Positions 14,095 to 62,442 of a DNA stretch of 64,000 nt are shown here, in pieces. Within the stretch, counting starts at the first letter, position 1; each line of letters opens with the position of its first letter. A program made the position numbers and the translations under genes. The notes under the pieces were generated by a model. The model was not told where the DNA came from and did not search any database. It was given only the letters and a program-made list of their open reading frames with translations. This DNA is from a virus (Duplodnaviria > Heunggongvirae > Uroviricota > Caudoviricetes): IMG/VR virus record IMGVR_UViG_3300002542_000292; one strand, given 5' to 3'.

Positions 14095-14478
14095 TTGAAA
14101 AAGATGGCATTGGTGCTGATTATCCTAACCTTATTGGCATCCGGATGCGGTTCTGCAGATGTCGGACCCGAACCTGCACCTGCACCCATTGCCGAACATG
14201 AAGTCAAGCATGAGACCGTTGGAACGGCAACTTCTCCTACTGTATACGATGACCCGACGACTTACAAATATAATTCGTCAGACGTTCGGTTTGTCGTCGT
14301 AGACTACCAACACATCAGCGACGGTACCAAAAGCGGAATCACGATCAAGACGTTGGTAGACGTCGAAACTCGGGTCATGTACGTCCTCATGGAAAAGTTC
14401 CAGGCGGGATATGGTCTTAGCATACATCCAATTTTGGACGTGGATGGCAGTCCTCTCATTTATGACAAGGATTTCTGA
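14095..14478 (+). CDS. Lipoprotein (TTG start; signal MKKMALVLIILTLLASGC)
   Basis: GGAGGAA RBS, K-K n-region, hydrophobic core and LASGC lipobox. Confidence 0.6.
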   Translation: MKKMALVLIILTLLASGCGSADVGPEPAPAPIAEHEVKHETVGTATSPTVYDDPTTYKYNSSDVRFVVVDYQHISDGTKSGITIKTLVDVETRVMYVLMEKFQAGYGLSIHPILDVDGSPLIYDKDF

Positions 14479-14885
14479 TACGGTGGTTGTGGTGGAATGG
14501 CAGACACGCCAGATTGTGGATTTGGTGTCCGAAAGGACGTGAGGGTTTGAGTCCCTCCAATCACCCCATTACATATGTGCTGGCTTAGTTCAGATGGTAG
14601 AACATCCGCAGAGAACCTATTTTGGACTTCCAAATTCGCACCGGCATCCCGCAGGATTTCATAGGATTTTACATCTCCTGCTTGTGCTGCAAAGTGGAGT
14701 GCCGTATTACCGTAGTAATATTCGACTTCTTCTGTATCCGCTCCGAGGTCGAGGAGCAAACGGAGTACATCGTGTTTCCCTTCAGACGCAGCATACATCA
14801 ACGGTGTGATTCCACGCAACACGGGAATACATCGGGATTGATGTTCACGCCGTTTGCGTGGAGTTTCTCGATTTTTCCACGTCAC
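14460..14885 (-). CDS. Ankyrin-repeat protein
   Basis: GITPLMYAASEGKHDVLRLLLDLGADTE and GNTALHFAAQAGDVKSYEILRDAGANLEV are canonical ANK repeats; GTG start. The 3' ~120 nt is antisense to tRNA-His, so the true C-terminus may lie earlier or a frameshift may be present. Confidence 0.65.
   Translation of the reverse strand: MTWKNRETPRKRREHQSRCIPVLRGITPLMYAASEGKHDVLRLLLDLGADTEEVEYYYGNTALHFAAQAGDVKSYEILRDAGANLEVQNRFSADVLPSELSQHICNGVIGGTQTLTSFRTPNPQSGVSAIPPQPPYQKSLS
14482..14568 (+). tRNA. Non-canonical tRNA-His(GTG) with a type II (long variable arm) body; G-1 and C73 present; CCA encoded
   Basis: G-1 then acceptor GTGGTTG/CAATCAC, D-stem GTG/CAC, anticodon stem CCAGA/TTTGG with loop TTGTGGA, 15-nt variable arm GTCC-GAAA-GGAC, T-arm GAGGG-TTTGAGT-CCCTC, C73 then CCA. 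Confidence 0.55.
14579..14604 (+). pseudogene. Orphan tRNA 5' half (acceptor plus D-arm, GCTGGCTTAGTTCAGATGGTAGAAC) with no matching anticodon, T-arm or 3' acceptor strand
   Basis: Canonical D-arm GTTC-AGATGGTA-GAAC read directly; downstream sequence cannot complete a cloverleaf; lies inside the antisense ankyrin ORF. Confidence 0.4.
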
Positions 14886-15109
14886 TTTGGGCTACAGCTT
14901 CGGCGAGTTCTTCATGTTCCTGGTACATTTCAAACATTCACAACACTCCCTTACATAAATGCAGCATATATCAATTGTGACATTCGAAACTGCATTTGGT
15001 CAATAATTAAACATGTGCTTCACAAGAAATCCATCCGCATGTATATCTATACCCATATATTGACTATGCATGCGCATCTGTGATAAAATAATGAATAGAT
15101 CTGACATTT

Positions 15110-15185
15110 GGGCCGAAAGCTAATCTAGTGAAAGCGCCCGCCTGAAAAGCGGGAGAGTCTGGGGCGGAACCAGATCGGCCCACCA
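15110..15185 (+). pseudogene. Degenerate tRNA-like element (Phe GAA-like) with an aberrant T-loop and a 2-bp D-stem
   Basis: Acceptor GGGCCGA/TCGGCCC, A73 plus CCA, perfect anticodon stem CCCGC/GCGGG with loop CTGAAAA, but T-loop GGCGGAA lacks the TTC signature. Confidence 0.4.
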
Positions 15186-15199
15186 TAAACGATACGATT

Positions 15200-15348
15200 C
15201 ATCGGATGTACAGTGAAGGTAAAAGGCTATGCGCAAGCCCGGTGAGGGGGAGAGAGAAACCAACAGTCTGCAGGGATTCTAGATTAACTGCAGTGCGGGA
15301 GTAACGCCCTACAATGAATAGCTCACCACCTTCACTGTACATCCGATG
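15200..15348 (+). ncRNA. Structured element: 21-bp perfect inverted repeat (CATCGGATGTACAGTGAAGGT ... ACCTTCACTGTACATCCGATG) closing a 107-nt interior with internal palindromes; candidate ncRNA or miniature mobile element inside the tRNA array
   Basis: Arms at 15200-15220 and 15328-15348 are exact reverse complements; interior carries the palindrome CTGCAG...CTGCAG; no ORF. Confidence 0.45.
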
Positions 15349-15444
15349 TAGATGCATTGTCCAGAAGCTTTGATAGGTGAAGCTGACCCCATGCACGCGG
15401 GGCGAAGGTGAGTTCAAGTCTCCCCTGGACAGCCCTCAAGTTAT

Positions 15445-15522
15445 AGGGGTATGGAGTCGATTTGGTAAGACGCCCGACTGTTAATCGGGAGCATGCAGGT
15501 TCGAATCCTGCTACCCCTGCCA
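15445..15522 (+). tRNA. tRNA-Asn(GTT), CCA encoded
   Basis: Acceptor AGGGGTA/TACCCCT, anticodon stem CCCGA/TCGGG with loop CTGTTAA, T-arm GCAGG-TTCGAAT-CCTGC, G73 plus CCA. Confidence 0.75.
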
Positions 15523-15523
15523 T

Positions 15524-15597
15524 GGGTCCGTAGTGTAACGGTAGCACAGCACCCTTTTAAGGTGTCAGTTCAGGTTCGAATCCTGGGGGACCCACCA
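15524..15597 (+). tRNA. tRNA-Lys(TTT), CCA encoded
   Basis: Anticodon loop CTTTTAA, T-arm TTCGAAT, acceptor GGGTCCG/GGGACCC with one mismatch. Confidence 0.7.
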
Positions 15598-15610
15598 GAA
15601 AATACAACGT

Positions 15611-15686
15611 GGCGGGTTAGGCAAGAGGCTAAGCCGCAGGACTTTCAATCCTGTATCGGAGGGTTCGATTCCCCCACCCGTCACCA
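15611..15686 (+). tRNA. tRNA-Glu(TTC), CCA encoded
   Basis: Acceptor GGCGGGT/ACCCGTC, anticodon stem CAGGA/TCCTG with loop CTTTCAA, T-loop TTCGATT. Confidence 0.65.
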
Positions 15687-15698
15687 TAAACAGTTTTA

Positions 15699-15793
15699 CA
15701 GACCGGTATGGGGCGGCGTCACGCAAGTTCGATTCCCGCTCGCGAAGAGAATGGGTGACGTCGTCGGTGGTTCGAATCCGCCCCAGCCTGCCA
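15699..15793 (+). other. Unresolved tRNA-like element (~95 nt): good T-arm GGTGG-TTCGAAT-CCGCC and a G-CCA tail, but no clean 5' acceptor partner; an extra internal TTCGATT motif. Possibly an intron-containing, Sec-like or fused/degenerate tRNA
   Basis: 3' end CCAGCCT-G-CCA matches the tail style of neighbouring tRNAs; the 5' strand AGACCGG pairs only 5 of 7; internal GTCAC/GTGAC helix. Confidence 0.3.
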
Positions 15794-15794
15794 T

Positions 15795-15878
15795 AAGGGT
15801 GAGAGGCTCAAAGGCGAAAGGTAAGCCGCGGGGCTCCAAATCCCGTGCCAAGAGGTTCGATTCCTTCCACCCTTGCCA
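15795..15878 (+). tRNA. tRNA-Trp(CCA) with an expanded 15-nt D-loop, 84 nt, CCA encoded
   Basis: Perfect acceptor AAGGGTG/CACCCTT, anticodon stem CGGGG/TCCCG with loop CTCCAAA, T-loop TTCGATT; D-arm GGCT-CAAAGGCGAAAGGTA-AGCC is abnormally long. Confidence 0.6.
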
Positions 15879-15879
15879 T

Positions 15880-15954
15880 GCGGAATTAGTTTAGTCGGTA
15901 AAACGACGGCTTTCCAAGCCGTAGTGACGAGTTCGAATCTCGTATTCCGTTCCA
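15880..15954 (+). tRNA. tRNA-Gly(TCC), CCA encoded
   Basis: Acceptor GCGGAAT/ATTCCGT, anticodon stem ACGGC/GCCGT with loop TTTCCAA, T-loop TTCGAAT. Confidence 0.75.
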
Positions 15955-16040
15955 TTTCGCATTCGCTCAACAGATATTCGCTCAACCACATTCGTTCAAC
16001 TTATATTCGCTCAACCTATATCCGCTCAACTTCCTTTCTA
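15955..16040 (+). repeat. Five tandem copies of a 13-15-nt unit ATTCGCTCAAC(NNN) between tRNA-Gly and tRNA-Cys
   Basis: CATTCGCTCAACAGAT / ATTCGCTCAACCAC / ATTCGTTCAACTTAT / ATTCGCTCAACCTAT / ATCCGCTCAACTTCC read directly. Confidence 0.7.
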
Positions 16041-16044
16041 CTAC

Positions 16045-16130
16045 GCAGGTGTAGCGAAGAGGTCAAACGCGGCGGATTGCAAATCCGCTCCTGCAAAGGT
16101 TCGTAGGTTCGAATCCTACCACCTGCTCCA
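16045..16130 (+). tRNA. tRNA-Cys(GCA)-like with an unusual 14-nt variable arm (86 nt), CCA encoded
   Basis: Acceptor GCAGGTG/CACCTGC, perfect anticodon stem GCGGA/TCCGC with loop TTGCAAA, T-arm GTAGG-TTCGAAT-CCTAC; the variable region TCCTGCAAAGGTTC is long for Cys. Confidence 0.55.
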
Positions 16131-16133
16131 TTT

Positions 16134-16211
16134 GTAGCTGGCGGGAGGTCGGTATCTCACGAGGGTTCATAACCCTTGGCAACTCGGTTCGACTCCGAGG
16201 CGCAGCAACCA
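16134..16211 (+). tRNA. tRNA-like with CAT anticodon (Met/Ile2 type); acceptor stem not resolved, one extra nucleotide before CCA
   Basis: Anticodon stem GAGGG/CCCTT with loop TTCATAA and T-arm CTCGG-TTCGACT-CCGAG are clean; the 5' GCTGGCG versus 3' GCGCAGCA region does not pair canonically. Confidence 0.35.
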
Positions 16212-16220
16212 AATCTACGC

Positions 16221-16295
16221 GGTTCTTTCGTTCAGTGGTTAGGACGCTGCCCTGTCACGGCAGAGACGGGGGTTCGATTCCCCCAAGAACCGCCA
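16221..16295 (+). tRNA. tRNA-Asp(GTC), CCA encoded
   Basis: Acceptor GGTTCTT/AAGAACC, D-arm GTTC-AGTGGTTAGGAC-GCTG, anticodon stem CTGCC/GGCAG with loop CTGTCAC, T-arm GGGGG-TTCGATT-CCCCC, G73 plus CCA. Confidence 0.8.
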
Positions 16296-16299
16296 TACA

Positions 16300-16373
16300 T
16301 CGGAATTGGTATAATGGTCAGCACACGGGGATTTGATTCCCGTAGTTTGGGTTCGAATCCCAAGCCCCCCGCC
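16300..16373 (+). tRNA. tRNA-Gln(TTG)-like; 5' acceptor strand unresolved (3' strand is GCCCCCC-G-CCA)
   Basis: Anticodon stem CGGGG/TCCCG with loop ATTTGAT, T-arm TTGGG-TTCGAAT-CCCAA; no G-rich 5' partner found. Confidence 0.35.
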
Positions 16374-16392
16374 AAATATGCTACTCTCTTCC

Positions 16393-16418
16393 AGGGACGG
16401 ACACCATGTTCCGTCCCT
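16393..16418 (+). terminator. Hairpin AGGGACGGA-CACCATGT-TCCGTCCCT closing the tRNA array
   Basis: 9-bp perfect stem; no T-run, so it may be a processing site or attenuator. Confidence 0.35.
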
Positions 16419-18104: not shown

Positions 18105-18767
18105 ATGGATGTGGGTATGCGTGTGTATCATGCTGTACGGAATGGGGATATTTTGCAAATCGAACTGTTGATCAGAGAGTATGGCATCAGTAACAAACAG
18201 CACTATTTTTCGGTCATCGAAATGGTTGCAAAAGACATGCCAGACTATATTGATTTTCTTCTCGAAACAAGAGCAGCAATGTTTCGAAAGGAAGACAAGA
18301 TAGACGCATTGGTTGCAGCTGTTGACTACAACCGCTTAGGACTTCTGCAAAAAATACTGGATGTCTTCCCCGACATCGATCTCAATGCGCACATCAAAGG
18401 AAAGTCTACGGCATTGGCCAGGGCGATACAGAATAATGCCGTAGATGTTACAAAATTCCTTTTGGAGAGAGACGACATCGATGTTGACCGTCGCTACTAT
18501 CGGTATCGGACGTCCCTCATGTTGGCGTTGGAAAGGGGAAGACCAGACATTGCAGAAATAATCGTCGAACGTACCAAGAACGTAAACGCCGCAGACGAAA
18601 ATTGGAACACAGCACTGCATATCGCTTGTAAGAAAGTCTTGTTGCCGATGGCCGAAAAACTGCTTCAAAAGGGGGCCGAAATCCGGCGCAACGGAAGAGG
18701 AAAATTCCCTATCGATCTCGTTCCGAAAAAATTTAAGGCTGAATTTGCACCACTGTTTTCCAAATGA
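18105..18767 (+). CDS. Ankyrin-repeat protein (second copy)
   Basis: ATG 10 nt after GTGTAAGGAGTG; multiple ANK repeats (GKSTALARAIQNNAVDVTKFLL, WNTALHIACKKVLLPMAEKLLQKGAEI). Confidence 0.7.
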   Translation: MDVGMRVYHAVRNGDILQIELLIREYGISNKQHYFSVIEMVAKDMPDYIDFLLETRAAMFRKEDKIDALVAAVDYNRLGLLQKILDVFPDIDLNAHIKGKSTALARAIQNNAVDVTKFLLERDDIDVDRRYYRYRTSLMLALERGRPDIAEIIVERTKNVNAADENWNTALHIACKKVLLPMAEKLLQKGAEIRRNGRGKFPIDLVPKKFKAEFAPLFSK

Positions 18768-18802: not shown

Positions 18803-18832
18803 TTGACAAAGGCGTTTATTTGATGGTATCAT
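18803..18832 (+). promoter_or_regulatory. Promoter TTGACA-N18-TGGTATCAT (extended -10)
   Basis: Read directly upstream of 18852. Confidence 0.5.
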
Positions 18833-18851
18833 GGAAACGTGAAAAAACGGG

Positions 18852-19883
18852 GTGAAAGTATTGGATGCACAAGATATCTTGTCGATGAAAAGTCCGGGCG
18901 ATTTGTTCAGTCCGGATGTCGCCACGATGAAAACGGAGTACAAGAGGTTGGCAAAAATTTGGCATCCTGACGTACATGACGATCCCGACCTTGCATCCCG
19001 CGTGATGAGCAAGATCAACGAACTCTACGGCGAAGGGATGAGGCTCCTCCAAGAAGGAAGGTGGACAAAGTCCAATTTTGTGCAGTTCCGTTCTTTGGAC
19101 GGCAAGCTGCACAACATTAGCTATCTGGCGGAAATCCCCTTCGAACTCGGCAAATGTTACATATGCAACAGCCTAATCGTGTATGTCGTGAAGTCAGAAC
19201 ACAGGCAGTTCTTCGACAACTGTGCAACACGTGTTGAAAATCTCAAATTCGCCGATCGGAACATGGAATCTGAATTCAGACGGTTCCTGCCGAAGTTTGT
19301 TGGCAAATTTGAGACTTCCGAAGAACTTGCCGTGGTCATGGCAAAGCCGTCCGACTTCTTGTCGCTCAGACACGTGTTGGAGCATTTCGGAGGAAAACTG
19401 CCGGACCGTCACGTGGCGTGGATTCTGAGTTCGCTGTACAACCTTGCGTGCTTTCTGCAGTTCAACGGTATCGTGCACAACGGCATAACGATCGACAGCT
19501 ACTTCATTTCGCCCGCACAACACAACGGCATGCTTCTTGGCGGTTGGTGGTACAGTACGCCTGTGGGCGAAAGGATGTTGGGCATTCCCAAGGACGTGTT
19601 CGACATCCTCACGTTCCGAACCAAATCTGACAAGACGTCCGTCCATGCTACAGATCTCAATTGCATAAGACAGCTTGGAAGGCAACTTCTCGGAGATATT
19701 TCCGGTCGGACTCTGAAAAATAGGACGGACATTCCCCGGCCGATTCTTGATTGGGTGCTCGGCGCATCCACGAATGAACCGATGGAAGAATACGTCGCTT
19801 GGGAAAAAACGCTCGATGCAGGATACGGCAAACGGAAATTCGTCCACATGAACGTGTCCGCTGCCGATCTGTATAAAAAATGA
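18852..19883 (+). CDS. J-domain (DnaJ-like, HPD motif) protein with an uncharacterised ~250-aa C-terminal domain
   Basis: EYKRLAKIWHPDVHDD matches the J-domain helix II-HPD signature; the C-terminal part has no recognised motif; its stop overlaps the next start (ATGA). Confidence 0.6.
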   Translation: MKVLDAQDILSMKSPGDLFSPDVATMKTEYKRLAKIWHPDVHDDPDLASRVMSKINELYGEGMRLLQEGRWTKSNFVQFRSLDGKLHNISYLAEIPFELGKCYICNSLIVYVVKSEHRQFFDNCATRVENLKFADRNMESEFRRFLPKFVGKFETSEELAVVMAKPSDFLSLRHVLEHFGGKLPDRHVAWILSSLYNLACFLQFNGIVHNGITIDSYFISPAQHNGMLLGGWWYSTPVGERMLGIPKDVFDILTFRTKSDKTSVHATDLNCIRQLGRQLLGDISGRTLKNRTDIPRPILDWVLGASTNEPMEEYVAWEKTLDAGYGKRKFVHMNVSAADLYKK

Positions 19884-53737: not shown

Positions 53738-55729
53738 ATGAAAAACATACTTGCATACAGCATGCTTGGGTGCCTGTTGGTACTCGAAGTACTCGGCATA
53801 GCATCAAACATACCACAAATGTTCATTCAGCCGAAACAGTTTGCAGAGAATATGCAATGGATGGATCCCCAATGGATCGGTCTGATTCTGTTGGCCGTTT
53901 TGGCGATCATGAGGAAAAAATACTCCGAATACCTGTACGGCTGGTTTGACAAAATATTCGTAATTGCTGTATGCCTTGGAGTGCTTGCCTACGGTTCGCA
54001 ACTCATCCATTTGGGAATCGTGCATTGGCTGGATGGACAAGATTTGGGACAAGGCGGACTCGGTGGACTGGTTGCTGCTATTGCATACAGGGTATCTGTG
54101 GTACTTGCCTTGGTCGTCATAGTAGTTATTATCCAGTCCAGGTTCGGAATGCTCCTCATGCAGCCAAAGGACCAAATCGAATTTGGTGCTTCCAAAAACA
54201 AAGGGAGATTCAAAGAAACCAAGTTCAGGAAGGAATTTGACATCGATCATGTACCAAAAAAGAATCCGGGGGATATTCTTGTATGTTGGGACCGGCAGAC
54301 GGGCAAGGGTGTCATAATTCCGGAAAAGGACAGAAGCCTGCACCTCTTCTGTGCCGGTCCTACGGGTTCCGGCAAATCTTCTACTCTGGTCCTGCCGATG
54401 ATCTACCAAGATTTGAAGGTACCAAATTCCGGCGTCGGACTCATAGAACCCAAGGGCGACATCGCAGAGACTGCCTATAAGATGGCTATTATGTTGGGAC
54501 GGAAGGATGCTGTATATTTCGACCCAACCAACAAAGATACTACTGTATATTTCAACCCGCTCGACCCAATGAACGGTACCGACTATGACGTCATCAACCT
54601 CATGACTACAGTGTATGACGGCATGGCGGGTGGTTCTAACACGGACCCATTCTTCCACAAGAACAGCATGATGGTTCTCCGTAAATCCTTGGACCTGTTG
54701 CTTCGTCTTAAGCGTTTGGAAGGTTCGGTCCTGACGCTCCGTGAACTCGGAAGGTTCCTGACGGGCAAGACGGTCATGATCGATTACTGCAAAAGGCTCG
54801 CTTCATACCGGAGACCGGAAGACGAAGCACTCTTGGAATGGTTCTATTCGGAACTCTTGGCTGACACCAAAAATGCGCAGAACAACCAAGGATACTACGT
54901 GGGACTGCGTCAGGAAATTGAACTTTTGGGTGAACTTGATTGGCTCAACGGAGATCCCAAGACCGGACGGTCCCAACTCAACTTCGACGAATTGTTGGAA
55001 AACGGCGGAGCATTCTTCGCCAGCACGGGACTCGGCGCGCTGGGTACGATGGGTAACTATCTCGGTCAATTTCTTATCATGGCATTCCAAAACGCCGTGT
55101 TCCGCAGACCGGGAAATGAAAATACGAGAAAACCATTCTACATGTACATCGACGAATTTTCACTGTATGCCAACGACAATTTCGAACGATGGTTGGCACT
55201 CGCACGCTCCTATCGTTGCCCGGCACACCTGTTTACACAAGGTACGGCTCAGCTCGACAAGGTAAGCGAAGAATTCAAACGTTCTGCAATCAACAACTGC
55301 CGACACAAGATTATCTTTGCACCAGAAGAAGAATCGGAAGCCAAGTATTGGTCGGAATATTTCGGAGAAACTTACAGGGAAAAAGTCAGCAAAAACGTGA
55401 GCAAGGGTACTTCCAAGAGATGGAATTGGCTCAATCTCATGGATACTCCGGACAACATCAACGATTCGGAAGGACAAAACGTCAGCGAAGAATTGGTCAA
55501 AAACTTCACGCCCACCGACATTATGAACCTGCCATTCAAACACGTCATCTACAAAACGGTCAAAGATGGCACCAACCAAATGGCAAGATACGGCGTGACA
55601 GATTGGATTCCAAATCGAGTCAACGACGTTCTCAAAAAGATAAACATAAAGGATCACAAGCCGAATATTCACATGCAACGCAGTACGGAACCCAATCTCT
55701 CGGGAGAAGAAGATCTCGAATTCGCATGA
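53738..55729 (+). CDS. Membrane-anchored P-loop DNA translocase, VirD4/TraG-like type IV coupling protein (FtsK-like not excluded)
   Basis: About 4 N-terminal TM helices, Walker A CAGPTGSGKSS, Walker B FYMYIDEF. Confidence 0.6.
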   Translation: MKNILAYSMLGCLLVLEVLGIASNIPQMFIQPKQFAENMQWMDPQWIGLILLAVLAIMRKKYSEYLYGWFDKIFVIAVCLGVLAYGSQLIHLGIVHWLDGQDLGQGGLGGLVAAIAYRVSVVLALVVIVVIIQSRFGMLLMQPKDQIEFGASKNKGRFKETKFRKEFDIDHVPKKNPGDILVCWDRQTGKGVIIPEKDRSLHLFCAGPTGSGKSSTLVLPMIYQDLKVPNSGVGLIEPKGDIAETAYKMAIMLGRKDAVYFDPTNKDTTVYFNPLDPMNGTDYDVINLMTTVYDGMAGGSNTDPFFHKNSMMVLRKSLDLLLRLKRLEGSVLTLRELGRFLTGKTVMIDYCKRLASYRRPEDEALLEWFYSELLADTKNAQNNQGYYVGLRQEIELLGELDWLNGDPKTGRSQLNFDELLENGGAFFASTGLGALGTMGNYLGQFLIMAFQNAVFRRPGNENTRKPFYMYIDEFSLYANDNFERWLALARSYRCPAHLFTQGTAQLDKVSEEFKRSAINNCRHKIIFAPEEESEAKYWSEYFGETYREKVSKNVSKGTSKRWNWLNLMDTPDNINDSEGQNVSEELVKNFTPTDIMNLPFKHVIYKTVKDGTNQMARYGVTDWIPNRVNDVLKKINIKDHKPNIHMQRSTEPNLSGEEDLEFA

Positions 55730-56927: not shown

Positions 56928-57914
56928 TCAAATGATGAGCAAACCTTCTTTATTGACTTGCATGTCGGACCTCACGGCCCGAAGCAGATCGCGTCTTCCG
57001 TCGATCACTTCTTCATGACCGAGAAAATGAATCGGGTCAAACTTCCTGGATTCGAATACAGAAAGTTCAAACAAATTGTGTTGCTGTTTCCCGTTGGTGA
57101 GGTTGCAATACCAAATGTCCGCATAGGGACCGTATTTCTTGATGTCTTCCATGGTGGCGACTATCACGCGCATACGGCTTCCTGCTTCTTTCAAGTACAA
57201 GTTGACCGTGTTTATGATGTTCTGAACGCGCACTTTGTTGAGGAGCGTTACGAACATAATGATTTGTTGGTCAGCCTTGTACCCGTGCAGATGGAAATAT
57301 GTCAGATAGTTCCGAATCTTGGCGTCGATCATTTGCAAGTTCTGTTTGCCAGAATCGAGTTCCAGATTGAATGAAGATTCTCCGCCATCGTGAGTAAAAT
57401 ACCCAAGTGCATCTGGGATTATCTTTGGAGAGCCATCGTCATACGGATACAGACTTTCACATTCGATGGGACCTCTCCAAAGAAGGAGACCGGAATTTGG
57501 CACGTTGTCGTGTTCGATGAAAGACATCATGACCTCCGTAGCTGCACTGTTGTGAGCTGCGAATACCAGCATGCCGGCCGGTGTGCGATTGAGATTTTTC
57601 GGAACCGAAGGATCCACACTGTGCAGAATTTCGATTCCTGCTTTTTTGATGAAGTAGTAATAATAGTTGTTGAACTGCACGCATCCTATATAATCAAGTT
57701 CCTTGAGTGCAGAAACGTACCATCTCACGTTCCTCTCGTTTTTGTAGCACAAAAGTCTCTTCATATCAGATACACGCAGGAAGTCATATCTGAGCAATAC
57801 TTTGAGGAACGGTTCGTAATGGGGATTATACAGGTTGTTCGGGTCTTTTGGGAACCTTGGGTTCCATTTATTCTTTTCAATAAGCTTTTTTATCTTTGCC
57901 CTGGAATCTGTCAT
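56928..57914 (-). CDS. Hypothetical protein (328 aa); possible DNA-binding or replication-relaxation-type function
   Basis: ORF only; the function guess rests on its placement in the plasmid-like module. Confidence 0.35.
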   Translation of the reverse strand: MTDSRAKIKKLIEKNKWNPRFPKDPNNLYNPHYEPFLKVLLRYDFLRVSDMKRLLCYKNERNVRWYVSALKELDYIGCVQFNNYYYYFIKKAGIEILHSVDPSVPKNLNRTPAGMLVFAAHNSAATEVMMSFIEHDNVPNSGLLLWRGPIECESLYPYDDGSPKIIPDALGYFTHDGGESSFNLELDSGKQNLQMIDAKIRNYLTYFHLHGYKADQQIIMFVTLLNKVRVQNIINTVNLYLKEAGSRMRVIVATMEDIKKYGPYADIWYCNLTNGKQQHNLFELSVFESRKFDPIHFLGHEEVIDGRRDLLRAVRSDMQVNKEGLLII

Positions 57915-58087: not shown

Positions 58088-58354
58088 GTGCAAACGGATG
58101 TGTTGCTTCAAACCTTGGGGATTGTGAACTTGGTAACATTGCTTTTGTACATCGCGGATTATTTGGGGGCGATGAATAGGGGGTTTAGGTTCCCCAACGT
58201 GATCATTTGGCTCCCCACCATTGCATTCGGTTCATTCGGGGCATTTGTAGGAGTGTATACAAGCGGTCACAAATTGGAACGTCCGGAATTCAGATTTGGG
58301 ATTCCGTGCCTTGTGGTCGCACATTTGTTTGCCCTAGCAATCCTCATGATGTAA
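58088..58354 (+). CDS. Small membrane protein (88 aa)
   Basis: GTG 10 nt after GTGTAAGGAGTG; 2-3 TM helices. Confidence 0.5.
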   Translation: MQTDVLLQTLGIVNLVTLLLYIADYLGAMNRGFRFPNVIIWLPTIAFGSFGAFVGVYTSGHKLERPEFRFGIPCLVVAHLFALAILMM

Positions 58355-58356
58355 AC

Positions 58357-58395
58357 AAAAAGATGGAGAATGCATCACGCATTCTCCATCTTTTT
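58357..58395. terminator. Bidirectional terminator AAAAAGATGGAGAATGC-ATCAC-GCATTCTCCATCTTTTT
   Basis: 17-bp perfect stem; overlaps the stop of the primase-polymerase gene. Confidence 0.8.
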
Positions 58396-59640
58396 GTTTA
58401 CAGACTTTATAATGCTCATGAGGTAATTGTGGCGACTTCCATACCGTTCCCTGTATTTTTGACCGATCTTGTATCGTTCGTCTTCATACAAGTTCCTGAT
58501 AGCAAGTGGCGTGTAGCCCATCCTGCGAAGTTCGTATATCACCTTATAGTCGAGTTCCGATCTTCCACCACGCAGGGTTCCGTTCATAATTTTCACTCGA
58601 AGGGCAAACGGCAGTTCGGAAACTACGATCTTGTCCTTCGTTGCAACCTCCTTGCGAAGCTTCGCCATATGCTTTATGACACGCATGGCATCTTCACCGA
58701 GTGGAAACCTTGAGAATTCCTCTCCCGTGTGGAGGATGAACATGCCATCTTCCATGTCGATGTCGGCTTCGACTGGAGGATCTATCGGATAGTCGATGAT
58801 GCCGTTCGCCAAGTTGTCCACGATAATGTCGGTCCATATCTGCGGGAAGTTCTCCGCCCGCTGTATTTTCCTGATGTGCGGATATAGGCGATCTTTAGCC
58901 ATCCTCACAAGCTTCTTGTGTTCGTCCAAATCCTCCAGACGCATAGGACGGAATTGTTGTTTCACTTCGTCCCCCATAAGTTCGTTGATGTCTATATCCA
59001 TTTTGAACGATTCAAAGTTCTGGACATCATACGCCAAGCTTGGGTCGAAATGCACAATGCGCACCTTTTTCAGGTTGCTTTTATCCTTCATGTTGAAGGT
59101 GAAAGGGACGCGAAGCACGCGGTCCAGATTGAACGTGGAGTCCCCCTGCACAGATTCGCTGAGGCCCTTGAGAATCCCCTTGATGTATGCCTTGCAATCG
59201 AGGTCCTTCACATGGTACGTTTCCTTCAACTTCCAATAGCAATGGTATCCATTGCCCGACATGATGACAAGCGTCGGTTTTTGTTCCATGTTCATGATGC
59301 TTTTGAAGTGTTCGTCCAGGGAAGTGTTGATCTGCTTTCCGTCCACGTCTACCCATAGAAAGGGAACATCGACGATCAGACTTTCTTCCGCATGTTTGTC
59401 GACGCTTTCTCTGCGCGGGCAGACGCCGAAATAGCAGTTTTCATACACTCTGAGTTTCTCAATTCTGTTGGCTGCATACTTCAGCCACGAAGGGTCGAAC
59501 AAGGAATACGATTTCACGCTCGGTATGCGGTTCGAACCCATGAACATCAATTCCACATGTCCGCGTTGACCTTCAAACATGTATTGAAGAAATTGTTCCA
59601 CGTTTTTAATGACGGCGCCGTTTTGCAACGCTCGCACCAC
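58375..59640 (-). CDS. Primase-polymerase (archaeo-eukaryotic primase superfamily) replication protein
   Basis: DVDGK and SGNGYHCYW motifs typical of the PrimPol / plasmid RepB-prime-type catalytic domain. Confidence 0.6.
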   Translation of the reverse strand: MVRALQNGAVIKNVEQFLQYMFEGQRGHVELMFMGSNRIPSVKSYSLFDPSWLKYAANRIEKLRVYENCYFGVCPRRESVDKHAEESLIVDVPFLWVDVDGKQINTSLDEHFKSIMNMEQKPTLVIMSGNGYHCYWKLKETYHVKDLDCKAYIKGILKGLSESVQGDSTFNLDRVLRVPFTFNMKDKSNLKKVRIVHFDPSLAYDVQNFESFKMDIDINELMGDEVKQQFRPMRLEDLDEHKKLVRMAKDRLYPHIRKIQRAENFPQIWTDIIVDNLANGIIDYPIDPPVEADIDMEDGMFILHTGEEFSRFPLGEDAMRVIKHMAKLRKEVATKDKIVVSELPFALRVKIMNGTLRGGRSELDYKVIYELRRMGYTPLAIRNLYEDERYKIGQKYRERYGSRHNYLMSIIKSVNKKMENA

Positions 59641-60237: not shown

Positions 60238-60250
60238 TATTCCTCTCCAT

Positions 60251-60290
60251 ACTTGAAGGCAGGAATGCTTAAGCATTCCTGCCTTCAAGT
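60251..60290. terminator. 40-nt perfect palindrome ACTTGAAGGCAGGAATGCTTAAGCATTCCTGCCTTCAAGT
   Basis: Between convergent genes. Confidence 0.75.
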
Positions 60291-60946
60291 ATGTCGACCA
60301 TTTTGGGGATATCGTTTGTGATGAATTTGCCATATTCTTCCAGGTATTCTGCCGTAATTCCCGACTGTAGCGTTGCATATTCTGCGAAGATGGAAAGAAG
60401 ATCTTCCACGATGTTCGGATCTTGATCTCCTATTTCTTCGACGAGAGCGATGTACTTCCCATTGAGGTGGAACAGGCGACATGCGCAAAAGTCGAAAGCT
60501 TTGGTGTTGTTCTGCATGCGGATGATGTCTTCCACGTCGGAGAAGGTATACACCGCATAATCCGCAGGAATGACGTCGAGTGCAATTTCTCCTTGTTCGA
60601 CGTGTCCTTCATCGTAGTAATCTTCCACCACGTCTTCGTCTTCGTCGGTATCTTCGTCTTCTTCTATATCCGCGCCACAGCTCAGGTACTTTACAAGAGC
60701 CATGACGTTCGGTTCAGACTTGTCTTTTTCTTCGCAAATGGTGACTTGAAATTCCGTGGGTTGTGCGGCAAGGTCGTATTTCCTTACCACCACATCTATG
60801 GCATAAGTCGCCAGACGTTGCGTGGCTTCCACACTTTTGCGCACCTGATTCGCATTTACTCCAACGCTTTCCAGAAGGCTAGCCTGGTCGAATATGCAGA
60901 CGAATTCGTTTTCGTTTTTCCTGATGATTTGAACCACGAATAACAC
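60269..60946 (-). CDS. Highly acidic hypothetical protein (D/E-rich tract)
   Basis: 225-aa ORF with IEEDEDTDEDEDVVEDYYDE. Confidence 0.45.
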   Translation of the reverse strand: MLFVVQIIRKNENEFVCIFDQASLLESVGVNANQVRKSVEATQRLATYAIDVVVRKYDLAAQPTEFQVTICEEKDKSEPNVMALVKYLSCGADIEEDEDTDEDEDVVEDYYDEGHVEQGEIALDVIPADYAVYTFSDVEDIIRMQNNTKAFDFCACRLFHLNGKYIALVEEIGDQDPNIVEDLLSIFAEYATLQSGITAEYLEEYGKFITNDIPKMVDILEGRNA

Positions 60947-61200: not shown

Positions 61201-62253
61201 ATGTCACTGAAGGTTTCCGTAGACGCGGGGTACGGCTTTACCAAAGTCATCTCCAGCAAAGGAAAGCAAGCCGTTTTCCCAAGTCTCGTCGGATACGGAC
61301 GAGACAGGCTCAATCTGCTGAGCGAGAAAGATGGCAAGGAAAACCTGGAGAACCTCCAGGTAGTCATTCGGGATGGCGGCGAAACTTACAACTACTTCAT
61401 CGGCGAACTTGCCAAACGCGAGAGCGAGAACGCAACCTACATCATGGGGACCGACCGGCTGGCGGACCACCGGGCGAAGGCTTTGGTGCTGACGGCTGTG
61501 GCTGTAGTCATGGGGGATCACAACGACTCCGTCGAAGAACTCGCATTGGGTCTGCCCCTCCAATACTACAGCAAGCATCGGGGAGAACTGCAGAAAGCTT
61601 TCGAACAAACGAAGGCAGAGATCTCCTTCGTCTCCGGCGGATTCGTTCCGAAAACCATCGAATTCAACAGGGTGAGCGTTTACCCGCAAGCGGCCGGCGC
61701 TCTTTGGGCGCAACTTTTCAACGACAAGGGTGAATTTCGGAATCCGAAGCTTTCGGGTCTTGTTGGACTCATTGATATCGGGTTCAAGACGACGGATTTC
61801 ATCGTTATCGACCTCAACGACGGAATGCGGCTCCGTTCGGAACTGTCTGGTACGATCGAACAAGGCATGCGGCAGGTCATCGAAAATTCGCAACGTTGGT
61901 TCGAACTGCAGGTCGGCAATTCCGTGGATCCCAACGAATTCGAACACGCCATGCTGAAGGGCGACTGCCAATTCACCTACAGCCAATACATCGGCGGGCA
62001 GCGCATCCGCAAGGAATACAACCTCAGGCCGATCTACGACAAATTCAAAGCCGAACTTGCAACGACGATCAAGGAACGTGTGCGGCAGAAGTGGGGTTCG
62101 CGTATCAACTTTTTCCACATGGTGTTCCTTGCGGGCGGCGGCGCGATGGCACTGCACAAATACTTTGACGATTTCGAACTCGAAAGCAAGCTGTGCAACA
62201 CGCCGCAAATGTCGAATGCGAAGGGATTTCTCCTTATGTCCAGCATCAATTGA
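61201..62253 (+). CDS. ParM/StbA-family actin-like ATPase
   Basis: N-terminal VSVDAGYGFTKV (actin phosphate-1 motif), LIDIGFKTTD (phosphate-2); GGAGGT RBS. Confidence 0.7.
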   Translation: MSLKVSVDAGYGFTKVISSKGKQAVFPSLVGYGRDRLNLLSEKDGKENLENLQVVIRDGGETYNYFIGELAKRESENATYIMGTDRLADHRAKALVLTAVAVVMGDHNDSVEELALGLPLQYYSKHRGELQKAFEQTKAEISFVSGGFVPKTIEFNRVSVYPQAAGALWAQLFNDKGEFRNPKLSGLVGLIDIGFKTTDFIVIDLNDGMRLRSELSGTIEQGMRQVIENSQRWFELQVGNSVDPNEFEHAMLKGDCQFTYSQYIGGQRIRKEYNLRPIYDKFKAELATTIKERVRQKWGSRINFFHMVFLAGGGAMALHKYFDDFELESKLCNTPQMSNAKGFLLMSSIN

Positions 62254-62442
62254 TGCAGGACGATATACGAAGGGGATGTGTACATACAGTTCACATCCCC
62301 TTTTATCATTTTTGGCAATATACATACAATCCGTCTTGTTAACAAAGACTTTTATTGGAAAGTCTTGACAAAATACCCAACCATATGGTAGAATCAAAAT
62401 ATGGATTTGTGAATATTATGTGTAGTGTAAGGAGTGGTTGGA

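Follow-up and report, generated by a model that had tools for sequence, protein, structure and literature searches.

What is the perfect 21-bp inverted repeat that lies within a tRNA array of the virus record IMGVR_UViG_3300002542_000292? The question was examined in a stretch of 64,000 nucleotides (nt) of this record, hereafter the window, in which the repeat spans positions 15200–15348. The tRNA islands of phages and large plasmids repeatedly host structured RNAs of unknown function, such as GOLLD, ROOL, the Y-RNA-like RNAs and the stable RNAs of T4. The original prediction had described a 149-nt element with terminal inverted repeats and proposed for it a structured non-coding RNA, an insertion resembling a miniature inverted-repeat transposable element (MITE), a recombination site or an intron remnant. 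The analysis presented here indicates that the element is very probably a conserved structured RNA gene. It is best read as the gene of a structured non-coding RNA of about 150 nt, belonging to an undescribed family that resides in the tRNA operons of rare giant mobile elements. We also lean towards the fuller statement that this RNA is cut from the tRNA precursor and works in trans by way of its loops.

The inverted repeat and its fold

The two arms of the element, CATCGGATGTACAGTGAAGGT (15200–15220) and ACCTTCACTGTACATCCGATG (15328–15348), are 100% complementary over 21 bp and enclose a spacer of 107 nt, exactly as first described. Perfect inverted repeats of 21 bp with a spacer of up to 300 nt are expected by chance about 4e-6 times in 64 kb. 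No other inverted repeat of the window combines perfect pairing with a wide spacer; the remaining perfect ones are terminator-type hairpins with loops of 0–5 nt. A search for further copies of the 21-mer, which had been suggested as a check for a MITE, found it only at its two arm sites in the window, even when three mismatches were allowed, and no match was obtained in 100 shuffles.

The element folds with a predicted free energy of -64.5 kcal/mol (z = -7.0 against 200 dinucleotide shuffles), and its reverse strand reaches a nearly equal value of -63.8 kcal/mol. The inner CTGCAG palindromes pointed out in the original prediction (15268–15273 and 15288–15293) pair with each other in this fold.

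Homologues and covariation

Related loci were reached via homologues of a kinase-like open reading frame (ORF) with a weak DnaJ domain, located at 18852–19883. The same element was found inside tRNA arrays at two of these loci, L004 (positions 1106–1257; anchor protein 69% identical) and L007 (9006–9156; 65% identical). The copy in L004 is followed by the same tRNA-like cloverleaf as in the window and by tRNA-Asn, and the copy in L007 is placed between tRNA-Ile and tRNA-Cys.

The arms differ in sequence among the three homologues and yet stay complementary. The RNAalifold consensus of the three-way alignment contains 43 pairs, distributed over the terminal helix P1 (21–22 bp), the small hairpin P2, P3 (6 bp), P3a (4 bp), a CC/GG contact of 2 bp and P4 (6 bp). 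Changes on both sides that keep the pairing occur in 12 of the 43 pairs (six in P1, two in P2, three in P3 and one in P4). The fraction of paired cells is 96.9%, compared with 37–49% and 0–2 double changes in slid-register controls, in which the 3′ partners were displaced by 1–3 columns. None of 500 shuffles reached the observed pairing values. Six cells of the plus strand are G-U pairs that would become A-C mismatches on the opposite strand.

The unpaired regions include three invariant blocks, namely GGGAGAGAGAAACCAA, GAUUCUAGAU in the apical loop of P4, and GGGAGUAACGCCCUA-y-AAUGAAU. The window and L004 become similar in nucleotide sequence within P1 and stay so along the array, and the DNA before it cannot be aligned; the RNA is therefore conserved about as much as the tRNAs. 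The compensatory changes in two diverged relatives, the orientation shared with the tRNAs and the invariant loops support the structured non-coding RNA among the options first proposed. The structural evidence, derived from sequence comparison, is good for the three sequences, although the family counts very few members and its function is inferred only.

The original prediction had stated that the element contains no ORF. Two ORFs do overlap it, one of 32 codons starting at ATG on the plus strand (15206–15304) and one of 72 codons on the minus strand. The ORFs that run across the invariant block lie in three different phases in the three homologues, with 32, 30 and 19 codons, and therefore none is conserved. 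A small peptide was rejected as the product of the locus for the differing phase and length of these frames. Taken at the level of the sequence, these comparisons show the element to be neither a coding sequence nor a terminator nor a recent insertion.

Two covariance models, R1 for the whole element and R2 for its core, score the three copies at 169–185 bits and 111–116 bits, respectively. Run over 60 or more loci (about 1.2 Mb), both models returned the three known copies and no others. With three anchor proteins tried and 12 contigs examined, the RNA was found in L004 and L007 only. The neighbouring gene is present at 45 loci from named genomes (Clostridium and others), which have neither a tRNA array nor the RNA, and no copy of the RNA was found in the loci L064 and L065.

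Architecture of the predicted RNA

In the predicted structure, P1 closes a three-way junction that holds the hairpin P2 and a long arm composed of P3, P3a, internal loops and P4 (Table 1). Since the 3′ strand of P3 joins the 3′ strand of P1 directly, both helices can stack coaxially to give about 27 bp of double-stranded RNA. The stem of P2 is altered in the relatives and remains paired (GGGUU/AACCC in L004 and CAGCA/UGCUG in L007), and its loops are AUGCGCA, GUGCGCA and GACG in the three homologues.

The long arm carries the invariant blocks. The block GGGAGAGAGAAACCAA (15248–15263) is identical in all three homologues, and the CC at 15260–15261 is predicted to pair with the GG at 15297–15298. 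The loop of P4 holds the invariant GAUUCUAGAU (15275–15284), which includes the palindrome UCUAGA (15278–15283). This palindrome could give rise to a kissing dimer of 6 bp, and the self-duplex of the loop has a predicted energy of -6.8 kcal/mol. Within the conserved 3′ block, GGGAGUAACGCCCUA and AAUGAAU are invariant in the three homologues and the closing three nucleotides vary (UAG, UAU and UCG). The AGUA of this block (15300–15303) is located opposite the GAA at 15256–15258, an arrangement that we take to be the consensus of the loop-E/sarcin-ricin S-turn. Proteins and RNAs commonly dock on the loop-E/S-turn motif.

Table 1. Features of the predicted RNA and of the surrounding tRNA array (positions in the window)
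Feature	Position	Strand	Basis or remark
Promoter-like site TTGACT-18 nt-TAAAAT with TG extension	15060–15089	+	consensus scan only, 10 of 12 matches
tRNA-Phe(GAA), encoded CCA, atypical T-loop GGCGGAA (lacking UUC)	15110–15185	+	44.8 bits with the Rfam tRNA model (gathering score 29)
P1 (terminal helix, 21 bp), 5′ strand	15200–15220	+	six compensatory double-change pairs across three homologues
P2, side hairpin GGCU-AUGCGCA-AGCC on the 5′ side of the three-way junction	15225–15239	+	minimum-free-energy fold
P3 (GGUGAG) and P3a (GGGG), 5′ strands	15241–15250	+	P3: compensatory double changes in three of six pairs, 100% paired; P3a invariant
Purine-rich joining strand AGAGAGAAACCAACAGU	15251–15267	+	invariant through AA 15262–15263, then variable (CAGU/GAUU/UAUU)
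P4 hairpin CUGCAG/CUGCAG with 14-nt apical loop	15268–15293	+	one compensatory pair, two G-U changes
Conserved 3′ block UGCGGGAGUAACGCCCUACAAUGAAUAG	15294–15321	+	P3a 3′ strand CCCU at 15307–15310; 11-nt bulge at 15311–15321
P3, 3′ strand CUCACC	15322–15327	+	consensus structure, covariation
P1, 3′ strand	15328–15348	+	no U-run after it; no terminator-like site in scan
tRNA-like cloverleaf, lacking CCA	15358–15431	+	fold; absent from ARAGORN calls and from Rfam at E<=10
Rest of the array: Asn, Lys, Glu, atypical tRNA-likes, Gly, Cys, Met, Asp	15445–16295	+	ARAGORN and Rfam

Genomic setting

The element and the tRNAs of the array point the same way; the tRNA genes carry an encoded CCA, and the location of the element inside the array agrees with the original prediction. 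The promoter-like site upstream of tRNA-Phe(GAA) is likely the start of the transcription unit, judging from its match to the consensus. This tRNA gene, overlooked by ARAGORN, has a homologue in L007 (8846–8918), and 14 nt separate it from the element. A further 9 nt separate the element from the tRNA-like cloverleaf, which is the identity of the helices previously noted in the 95 nt that follow the element. The cloverleaf comprises a 7-bp acceptor stem, a 6-bp D-stem, a 4-bp anticodon stem with the 8-nt loop AUGCACGC, the T-arm GUUCAAGUC with a UUCAAGU T-loop, and a 3′ tail, GCCCUCAA, in place of CCA. It is kept in L004 (1261–1334), with the 8-nt loop AUGUGCGC, and is missing after the copy of the element in L007. 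The two nucleotides that differ between the loops of the window and L004 fall at the anticodon position (GCA in one and GUG in the other).

The suggestion of an excised-intron remnant finds no support here, as the flanking tRNA-Phe and tRNA-like genes are each complete. An intrinsic terminator was likewise rejected: the interior measures 107 nt, no U-tract follows P1 (the sequence after it is UAGAUGCAUU), and the terminator scan reports no site there.

Other parts of the array are unusual as well. The region 15700–15793, called by ARAGORN as a 94-nt tRNA-Gly(ccc) without support from Rfam, folds as a long stem bearing T-arm-like hairpins. The region 15794–15878 is a probable non-canonical tRNA-Trp with the anticodon loop CUCCAAA, an encoded CCA and an oversized D region; its single match is tRNA-Sec, with a sub-threshold score of 29.6 bits. 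Just upstream of the array, an ankyrin-repeat gene on the minus strand (14460–14937) is interrupted by a stop codon and frameshifts and is annotated as two pieces of 112 and 30 amino acids, which may reflect a pseudogene or an assembly error.

Database searches

Searches of Rfam 15 at gathering thresholds, which cover GOLLD, ROOL, 6S, SRP, T-box and pRNA among other families, gave no match to the element. When the element alone was searched at E<=10, the lone match was a microRNA precursor, a generic hairpin, on the minus strand, where it scored 26 bits (gathering score 63). The copy in L007 gave no Rfam match, and the searches of the window and three related loci returned nothing relevant. 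The Rfam check proposed in the original prediction thus yields no family for the element; the absence of a match, which had been counted there against a structured RNA, is not a valid refutation and shows only that the family is undescribed. The literature searched does not describe this RNA.

Scans for the 21-mer and for two exact patterns taken from the conserved blocks gave no match in 596 Gb of GTDB genomes and none in IMG/VR, and in JGI metagenomes they returned contigs of the same strain and one chance match only. By blastn, the element is unmatched in the PLSDB plasmids, and the GenBank phages give matches to tRNAs only. No complementary (antisense) sites to the invariant blocks are present within the window.

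Neither ARAGORN nor Rfam makes a tRNA or transfer-messenger RNA (tmRNA) call (CL00001) on 15200–15348. A tmRNA was rejected as an identity, because the ordinary tmRNAs near the anchor gene in relatives share nothing with the element. These are standard one-piece tmRNAs, located about 0.5–1.1 kb upstream of the kinase-like anchor gene in the related elements L018 (3066–3488) and L062 (9055–9457). L062 is binned as 'Thermoplasmatales archaeon' and is probably a mis-binned contig of a mobile element. As for a retron, the element precedes tRNA genes, and no reverse transcriptase domain is present in the annotation within 10 kb on either side. An analogy with Stem I of the T-box was also discarded: AGAGA and AGUA/GAA motifs and a variable triplet are present, but the positions of the motifs do not fit and the model gives no match.

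Proposed maturation and function

The following scheme is proposed for the RNA. It would be transcribed together with the tRNAs from the promoter-like site at 15060–15089 and released by the enzymes of tRNA maturation. The action of RNase Z or an exonuclease at tRNA-Phe would set the 5′ side, and RNase P may set the 3′ side at the downstream tRNA-like cloverleaf, a possible entry site. The helix of about 27 bp formed by P1 and P3 could seal the ends against exonucleases, or could be trimmed by RNase III in the manner of the processing stalks of rRNA. The mature RNA would then act in trans. Three parts of the RNA are its putative functional surfaces: the internal loop with its invariant purine-rich sequence, the bulge of 11 nt and the apical UCUAGA loop. 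Through them it might bind a protein or a second RNA from the translation or tRNA machinery, and it may do so as a kissing-loop dimer.

Several points weigh against this interpretation. The three distinct sequences provide few independent covariation events, too few for statistics of the R-scape type. P3a, the CC/GG pairs and all the proposed tertiary motifs are invariant and hence have no covariation behind them. P1 is perfect in the window copy only, and in L004 and L007 spans 22 positions with two mismatches each. L007 lacks the cloverleaf that would set the 3′ end, and no candidate for a partner protein recurs next to the element. The processing, the trimming by RNase III, the action in trans and the binding partner are all putative.

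A more specific version of the proposal would make the RNA a miniature counterpart of ROOL and GOLLD that self-assembles via UCUAGA, docks a component of the tRNA or translation machinery of the host via the loop-E-like loop and so re-tunes translation for the mobile element. The function of GOLLD and ROOL, encoded near phage tRNA islands, is unknown, and the multimers of ROOL, GOLLD and OLE are held by kissing loops (PMC12286853). The element resembles GOLLD and ROOL as a structured RNA of a mobile element beside or inside a tRNA array, and its invariant palindromic apical loop recalls the loop-loop contacts that matter in those RNAs. By contrast, GOLLD and ROOL are 4–6 times larger and contain many pseudoknots, no similarity in sequence or model connects them to the element, and the self-association of the element is conjectural. 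We regard this version as speculative and rather doubtful. If true, it would represent a new functional class of small RNAs specific to giant plasmid- or phage-like elements.

In practical terms, the size of about 150 nt, the simple structure backed by covariation and the sharply delimited invariant loops make this RNA easier to approach by mutagenesis, pull-down and structural work than RNAs of 600–800 nt. The identification of its partner, if achieved, could reveal what such RNAs do for mobile elements.

Comparison with known RNAs and alternative explanations

Among the alternatives, the one that survives best assigns the element a role in cis, in processing or stability. The helix of 21–22 bp would be an RNase III site that splits the precursor or sets the levels of the tRNAs, and the excised piece would be a non-functional by-product. 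RNase III has a size requirement for double-stranded RNA that is satisfied by about 27 bp, and the element reaches the length of a substrate with 21 perfect base pairs, or with the near-perfect 27 bp formed when P3 is stacked. The length of P1 is kept and its sequence is not, and the element is always located between tRNA genes, both of which agree with such a role. The stalks of rRNA operons and phage early transcripts offer a parallel, in that at least 20 bp of flanking double-stranded RNA surround a structured RNA in a tRNA operon; the element differs from them in enclosing only about 107 nt with a nearly perfect stalk. A stalk, however, has no need of at least 50 unpaired nucleotides that never vary, or of a conserved three-way junction in which P2, P3 and P4 covary, and neighbouring tRNAs in the same arrays are spaced 1–15 nt apart without such a helix. 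A role in cis is, for these reasons, considered unlikely.

The comparison with Y RNAs is the closest in design. Bacterial Y RNAs measure 80–130 nt and have a long stem at their ends, and Yrn2 shares a single precursor with tRNA-Asp (PMC4201824). The element could accordingly be a divergent Y RNA of the YrlA or Yrn type that binds the Ro60/Rsr protein of the host, or of the element itself, and tethers it to an exonuclease. It shares with YrlA (RF02553) and with Yrn1 and Yrn2 of Deinococcus a size of about 80–150 nt and a stem formed by the paired ends that closes a module of several helices, here a P1 of 21–22 bp kept by covariation. Y RNAs are also encoded beside tRNAs, co-transcribed with them and known in phages (PMC4201824), and a related locus, L008, holds at 18477–18682 an RNA with a 22-bp stem in the permuted order of YrlA. 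The specific traits of the family are missing, however. No YrlA match (gathering score of 69 bits) covers the element at E<=10 in searches of 15187–15360 and 14900–16400, and the only match in the region, of 16.8 bits, falls over tRNA-Cys and tRNA-Met. P2 has no T-loop, and the T-arm, a D-arm between P3 and P1 and the GNCGAAN0-1G motif are absent from the three homologues, whose conserved loops are unrelated in sequence to those of Y RNAs. No TROVE protein (Ro60/Rsr) was found in 20 scanned ORFs of at least 300 amino acids of the window, among which a 397-residue candidate at 61204–62397 was compared with PHROGs only, or in the precomputed Pfam annotation of the neighbours (window 4061–24478 and left flank). 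Moreover, neither covariance model scores the L008 RNA, which leaves homology unsupported. By analogy, the element appears most like a bacterial Y RNA in design and not a member of the family, and a true Y RNA identity is improbable.

The resembling RNAs of the related loci deserve a description of their own. The L008 RNA measures 206 nt. Inside its 22-bp terminal stem lie a T-arm, an acceptor-like helix (CCGUCUC/GGGGCGG) that carries an insert of 105 nt, and a canonical D-arm; this circular permutation is the one known from YrlA (PMC4201824). An intrinsic terminator then follows, and Rfam gives no match. Two tRNA-like RNAs, L014:4203–4292 and L008 at about 18808–18900, combine an acceptor stem and a canonical T-arm with an elongated 'anticodon' arm ending in AUUCUAGA; this loop has the same motif as P4 and, as an anticodon loop, would read CUA. 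Clusters of T-arm-like hairpins enclosed by a stem occur at L014:4285–4424, L008:18899–19021 and window 15700–15793, those of the relatives having terminal stems of 15–26 bp around two or three hairpins. These observations suggest that the arrays hold a broader set of RNAs, derived from tRNAs or resembling Y RNAs, to which the element belongs. The R1 and R2 models do not score the resembling RNAs of L008 and L014, nor does the YrlA model of Rfam match them, and homology is therefore not established. They also indicate that the arrays of these uncultivated elements hold several non-canonical tRNA-like and stem-enclosed RNAs overlooked by standard annotation.

In phage T4, the species 1 and 2 RNAs are stable non-tRNA molecules of about 120–140 nt that reside in a tRNA cluster and are matured from the same precursor; their function is unknown. 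They have no known relation to the element in sequence or structure.

A degenerate derivative of a tRNA, for instance a former suppressor kept as a tRNA mimic, was also considered and is judged quite improbable. If the UUCUAGA of the P4 loop is taken for an anticodon loop, its anticodon is CUA, an invariant ACC follows the 3′ strand of P3, the AUUCUAGA loop also caps the long arm of the tRNA-like RNAs of L014 and L008 mentioned above, and several other atypical tRNA-like genes are present in the arrays. Against this, the element receives no tRNA or tmRNA call and has neither a D-arm nor a T-loop, its arm exceeds the length of an anticodon arm by about four layers, G37 after A36 is atypical for a tRNA, and the core model gives the RNAs of L014 and L008 no score. 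The window contains no signal of stop-codon recoding, which led to the rejection of an amber suppressor.

An element acting at the level of the DNA, such as a cruciform or hairpin serving as a replication origin, recombination site or transfer origin, or a promoter, is more doubtful still. Compensatory changes preserve a hairpin in the DNA too, and both strands fold nearly equally well. The conserved block contains TAyAAT, as TATAAT in L004 and L007 and TACAAT in the window. The G-U pairs, however, favour an RNA of the plus strand, no -35 box was found at the threshold of the scan, and a branched fold with covarying inner helices is not needed by origins or recombination sites. The relaxase-like and coupling-protein genes are 38–42 kb distant, and an AT-rich, iteron-like region exists elsewhere, at 560–1040. 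The recombination site of the original prediction lacks support in the same way, with no integrase or relaxase nearby.

A MITE or another selfish insertion, to which the small size and perfect 21-bp terminal inverted repeats of the element had pointed, can be practically dismissed: there is one copy in 64 kb and one per related locus, the positions are orthologous in diverged genomes (neighbouring protein 65–69% identical), the arms have diverged while covarying to remain complementary, genome, viral, plasmid and metagenome collections yield the same strain only, and the proposed inspection for target-site duplications revealed no direct repeats at the arms, the flanks being GATT/TAGA in the window, CCGT/GCAC in L004 and TGGA/ACAG in L007.

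The host element

The window is part of a metagenomic contig of 301,935 bp (ENA ERZ795070), and identical or near-identical copies are present in three other samples; it was not found in IMG/VR. The genes of the window encode gyrase A and B, FtsH, ribonucleotide reductase, thymidylate synthase (ThyA), PhoH, DnaJ, adenylosuccinate synthetase, ankyrin-repeat proteins, a VirD4-like coupling protein and a Replic_Relax protein. The left flank (L066) contains genes of the type IV pilus or type II secretion system (T2SS) type, namely a prepilin peptidase, a pilin and a T2SSE ATPase. The host is probably a giant plasmid-like, possibly phage-like, element of Bacillota, an assignment made because the closest protein homologues among named organisms are those of Paenibacillus and Clostridium. 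The gene content mixes plasmid-type functions (VirD4-like, Replic_Relax and the pilin/T2SSE set) with phage-like ones (ribonucleotide reductase, ThyA, gyrase, PhoH and many tRNAs), as could be found in a megaplasmid or a jumbo phage.

Two further regions of the window stand out. The AT-rich region at 560–1040 (34% GC) contains several palindromic copies of ATTACCACAA-nnn-TTGTGGTAAT and resembles iterons, an origin or a partition site. Two perfect palindromes, at 58350–58402 (24 bp, 5-nt loop) and 60248–60293 (23 bp, 0-nt loop), lie near the Replic_Relax (56928–57914) and VirD4-like (53738–55729) genes and could be bidirectional terminators or candidates for a transfer origin.

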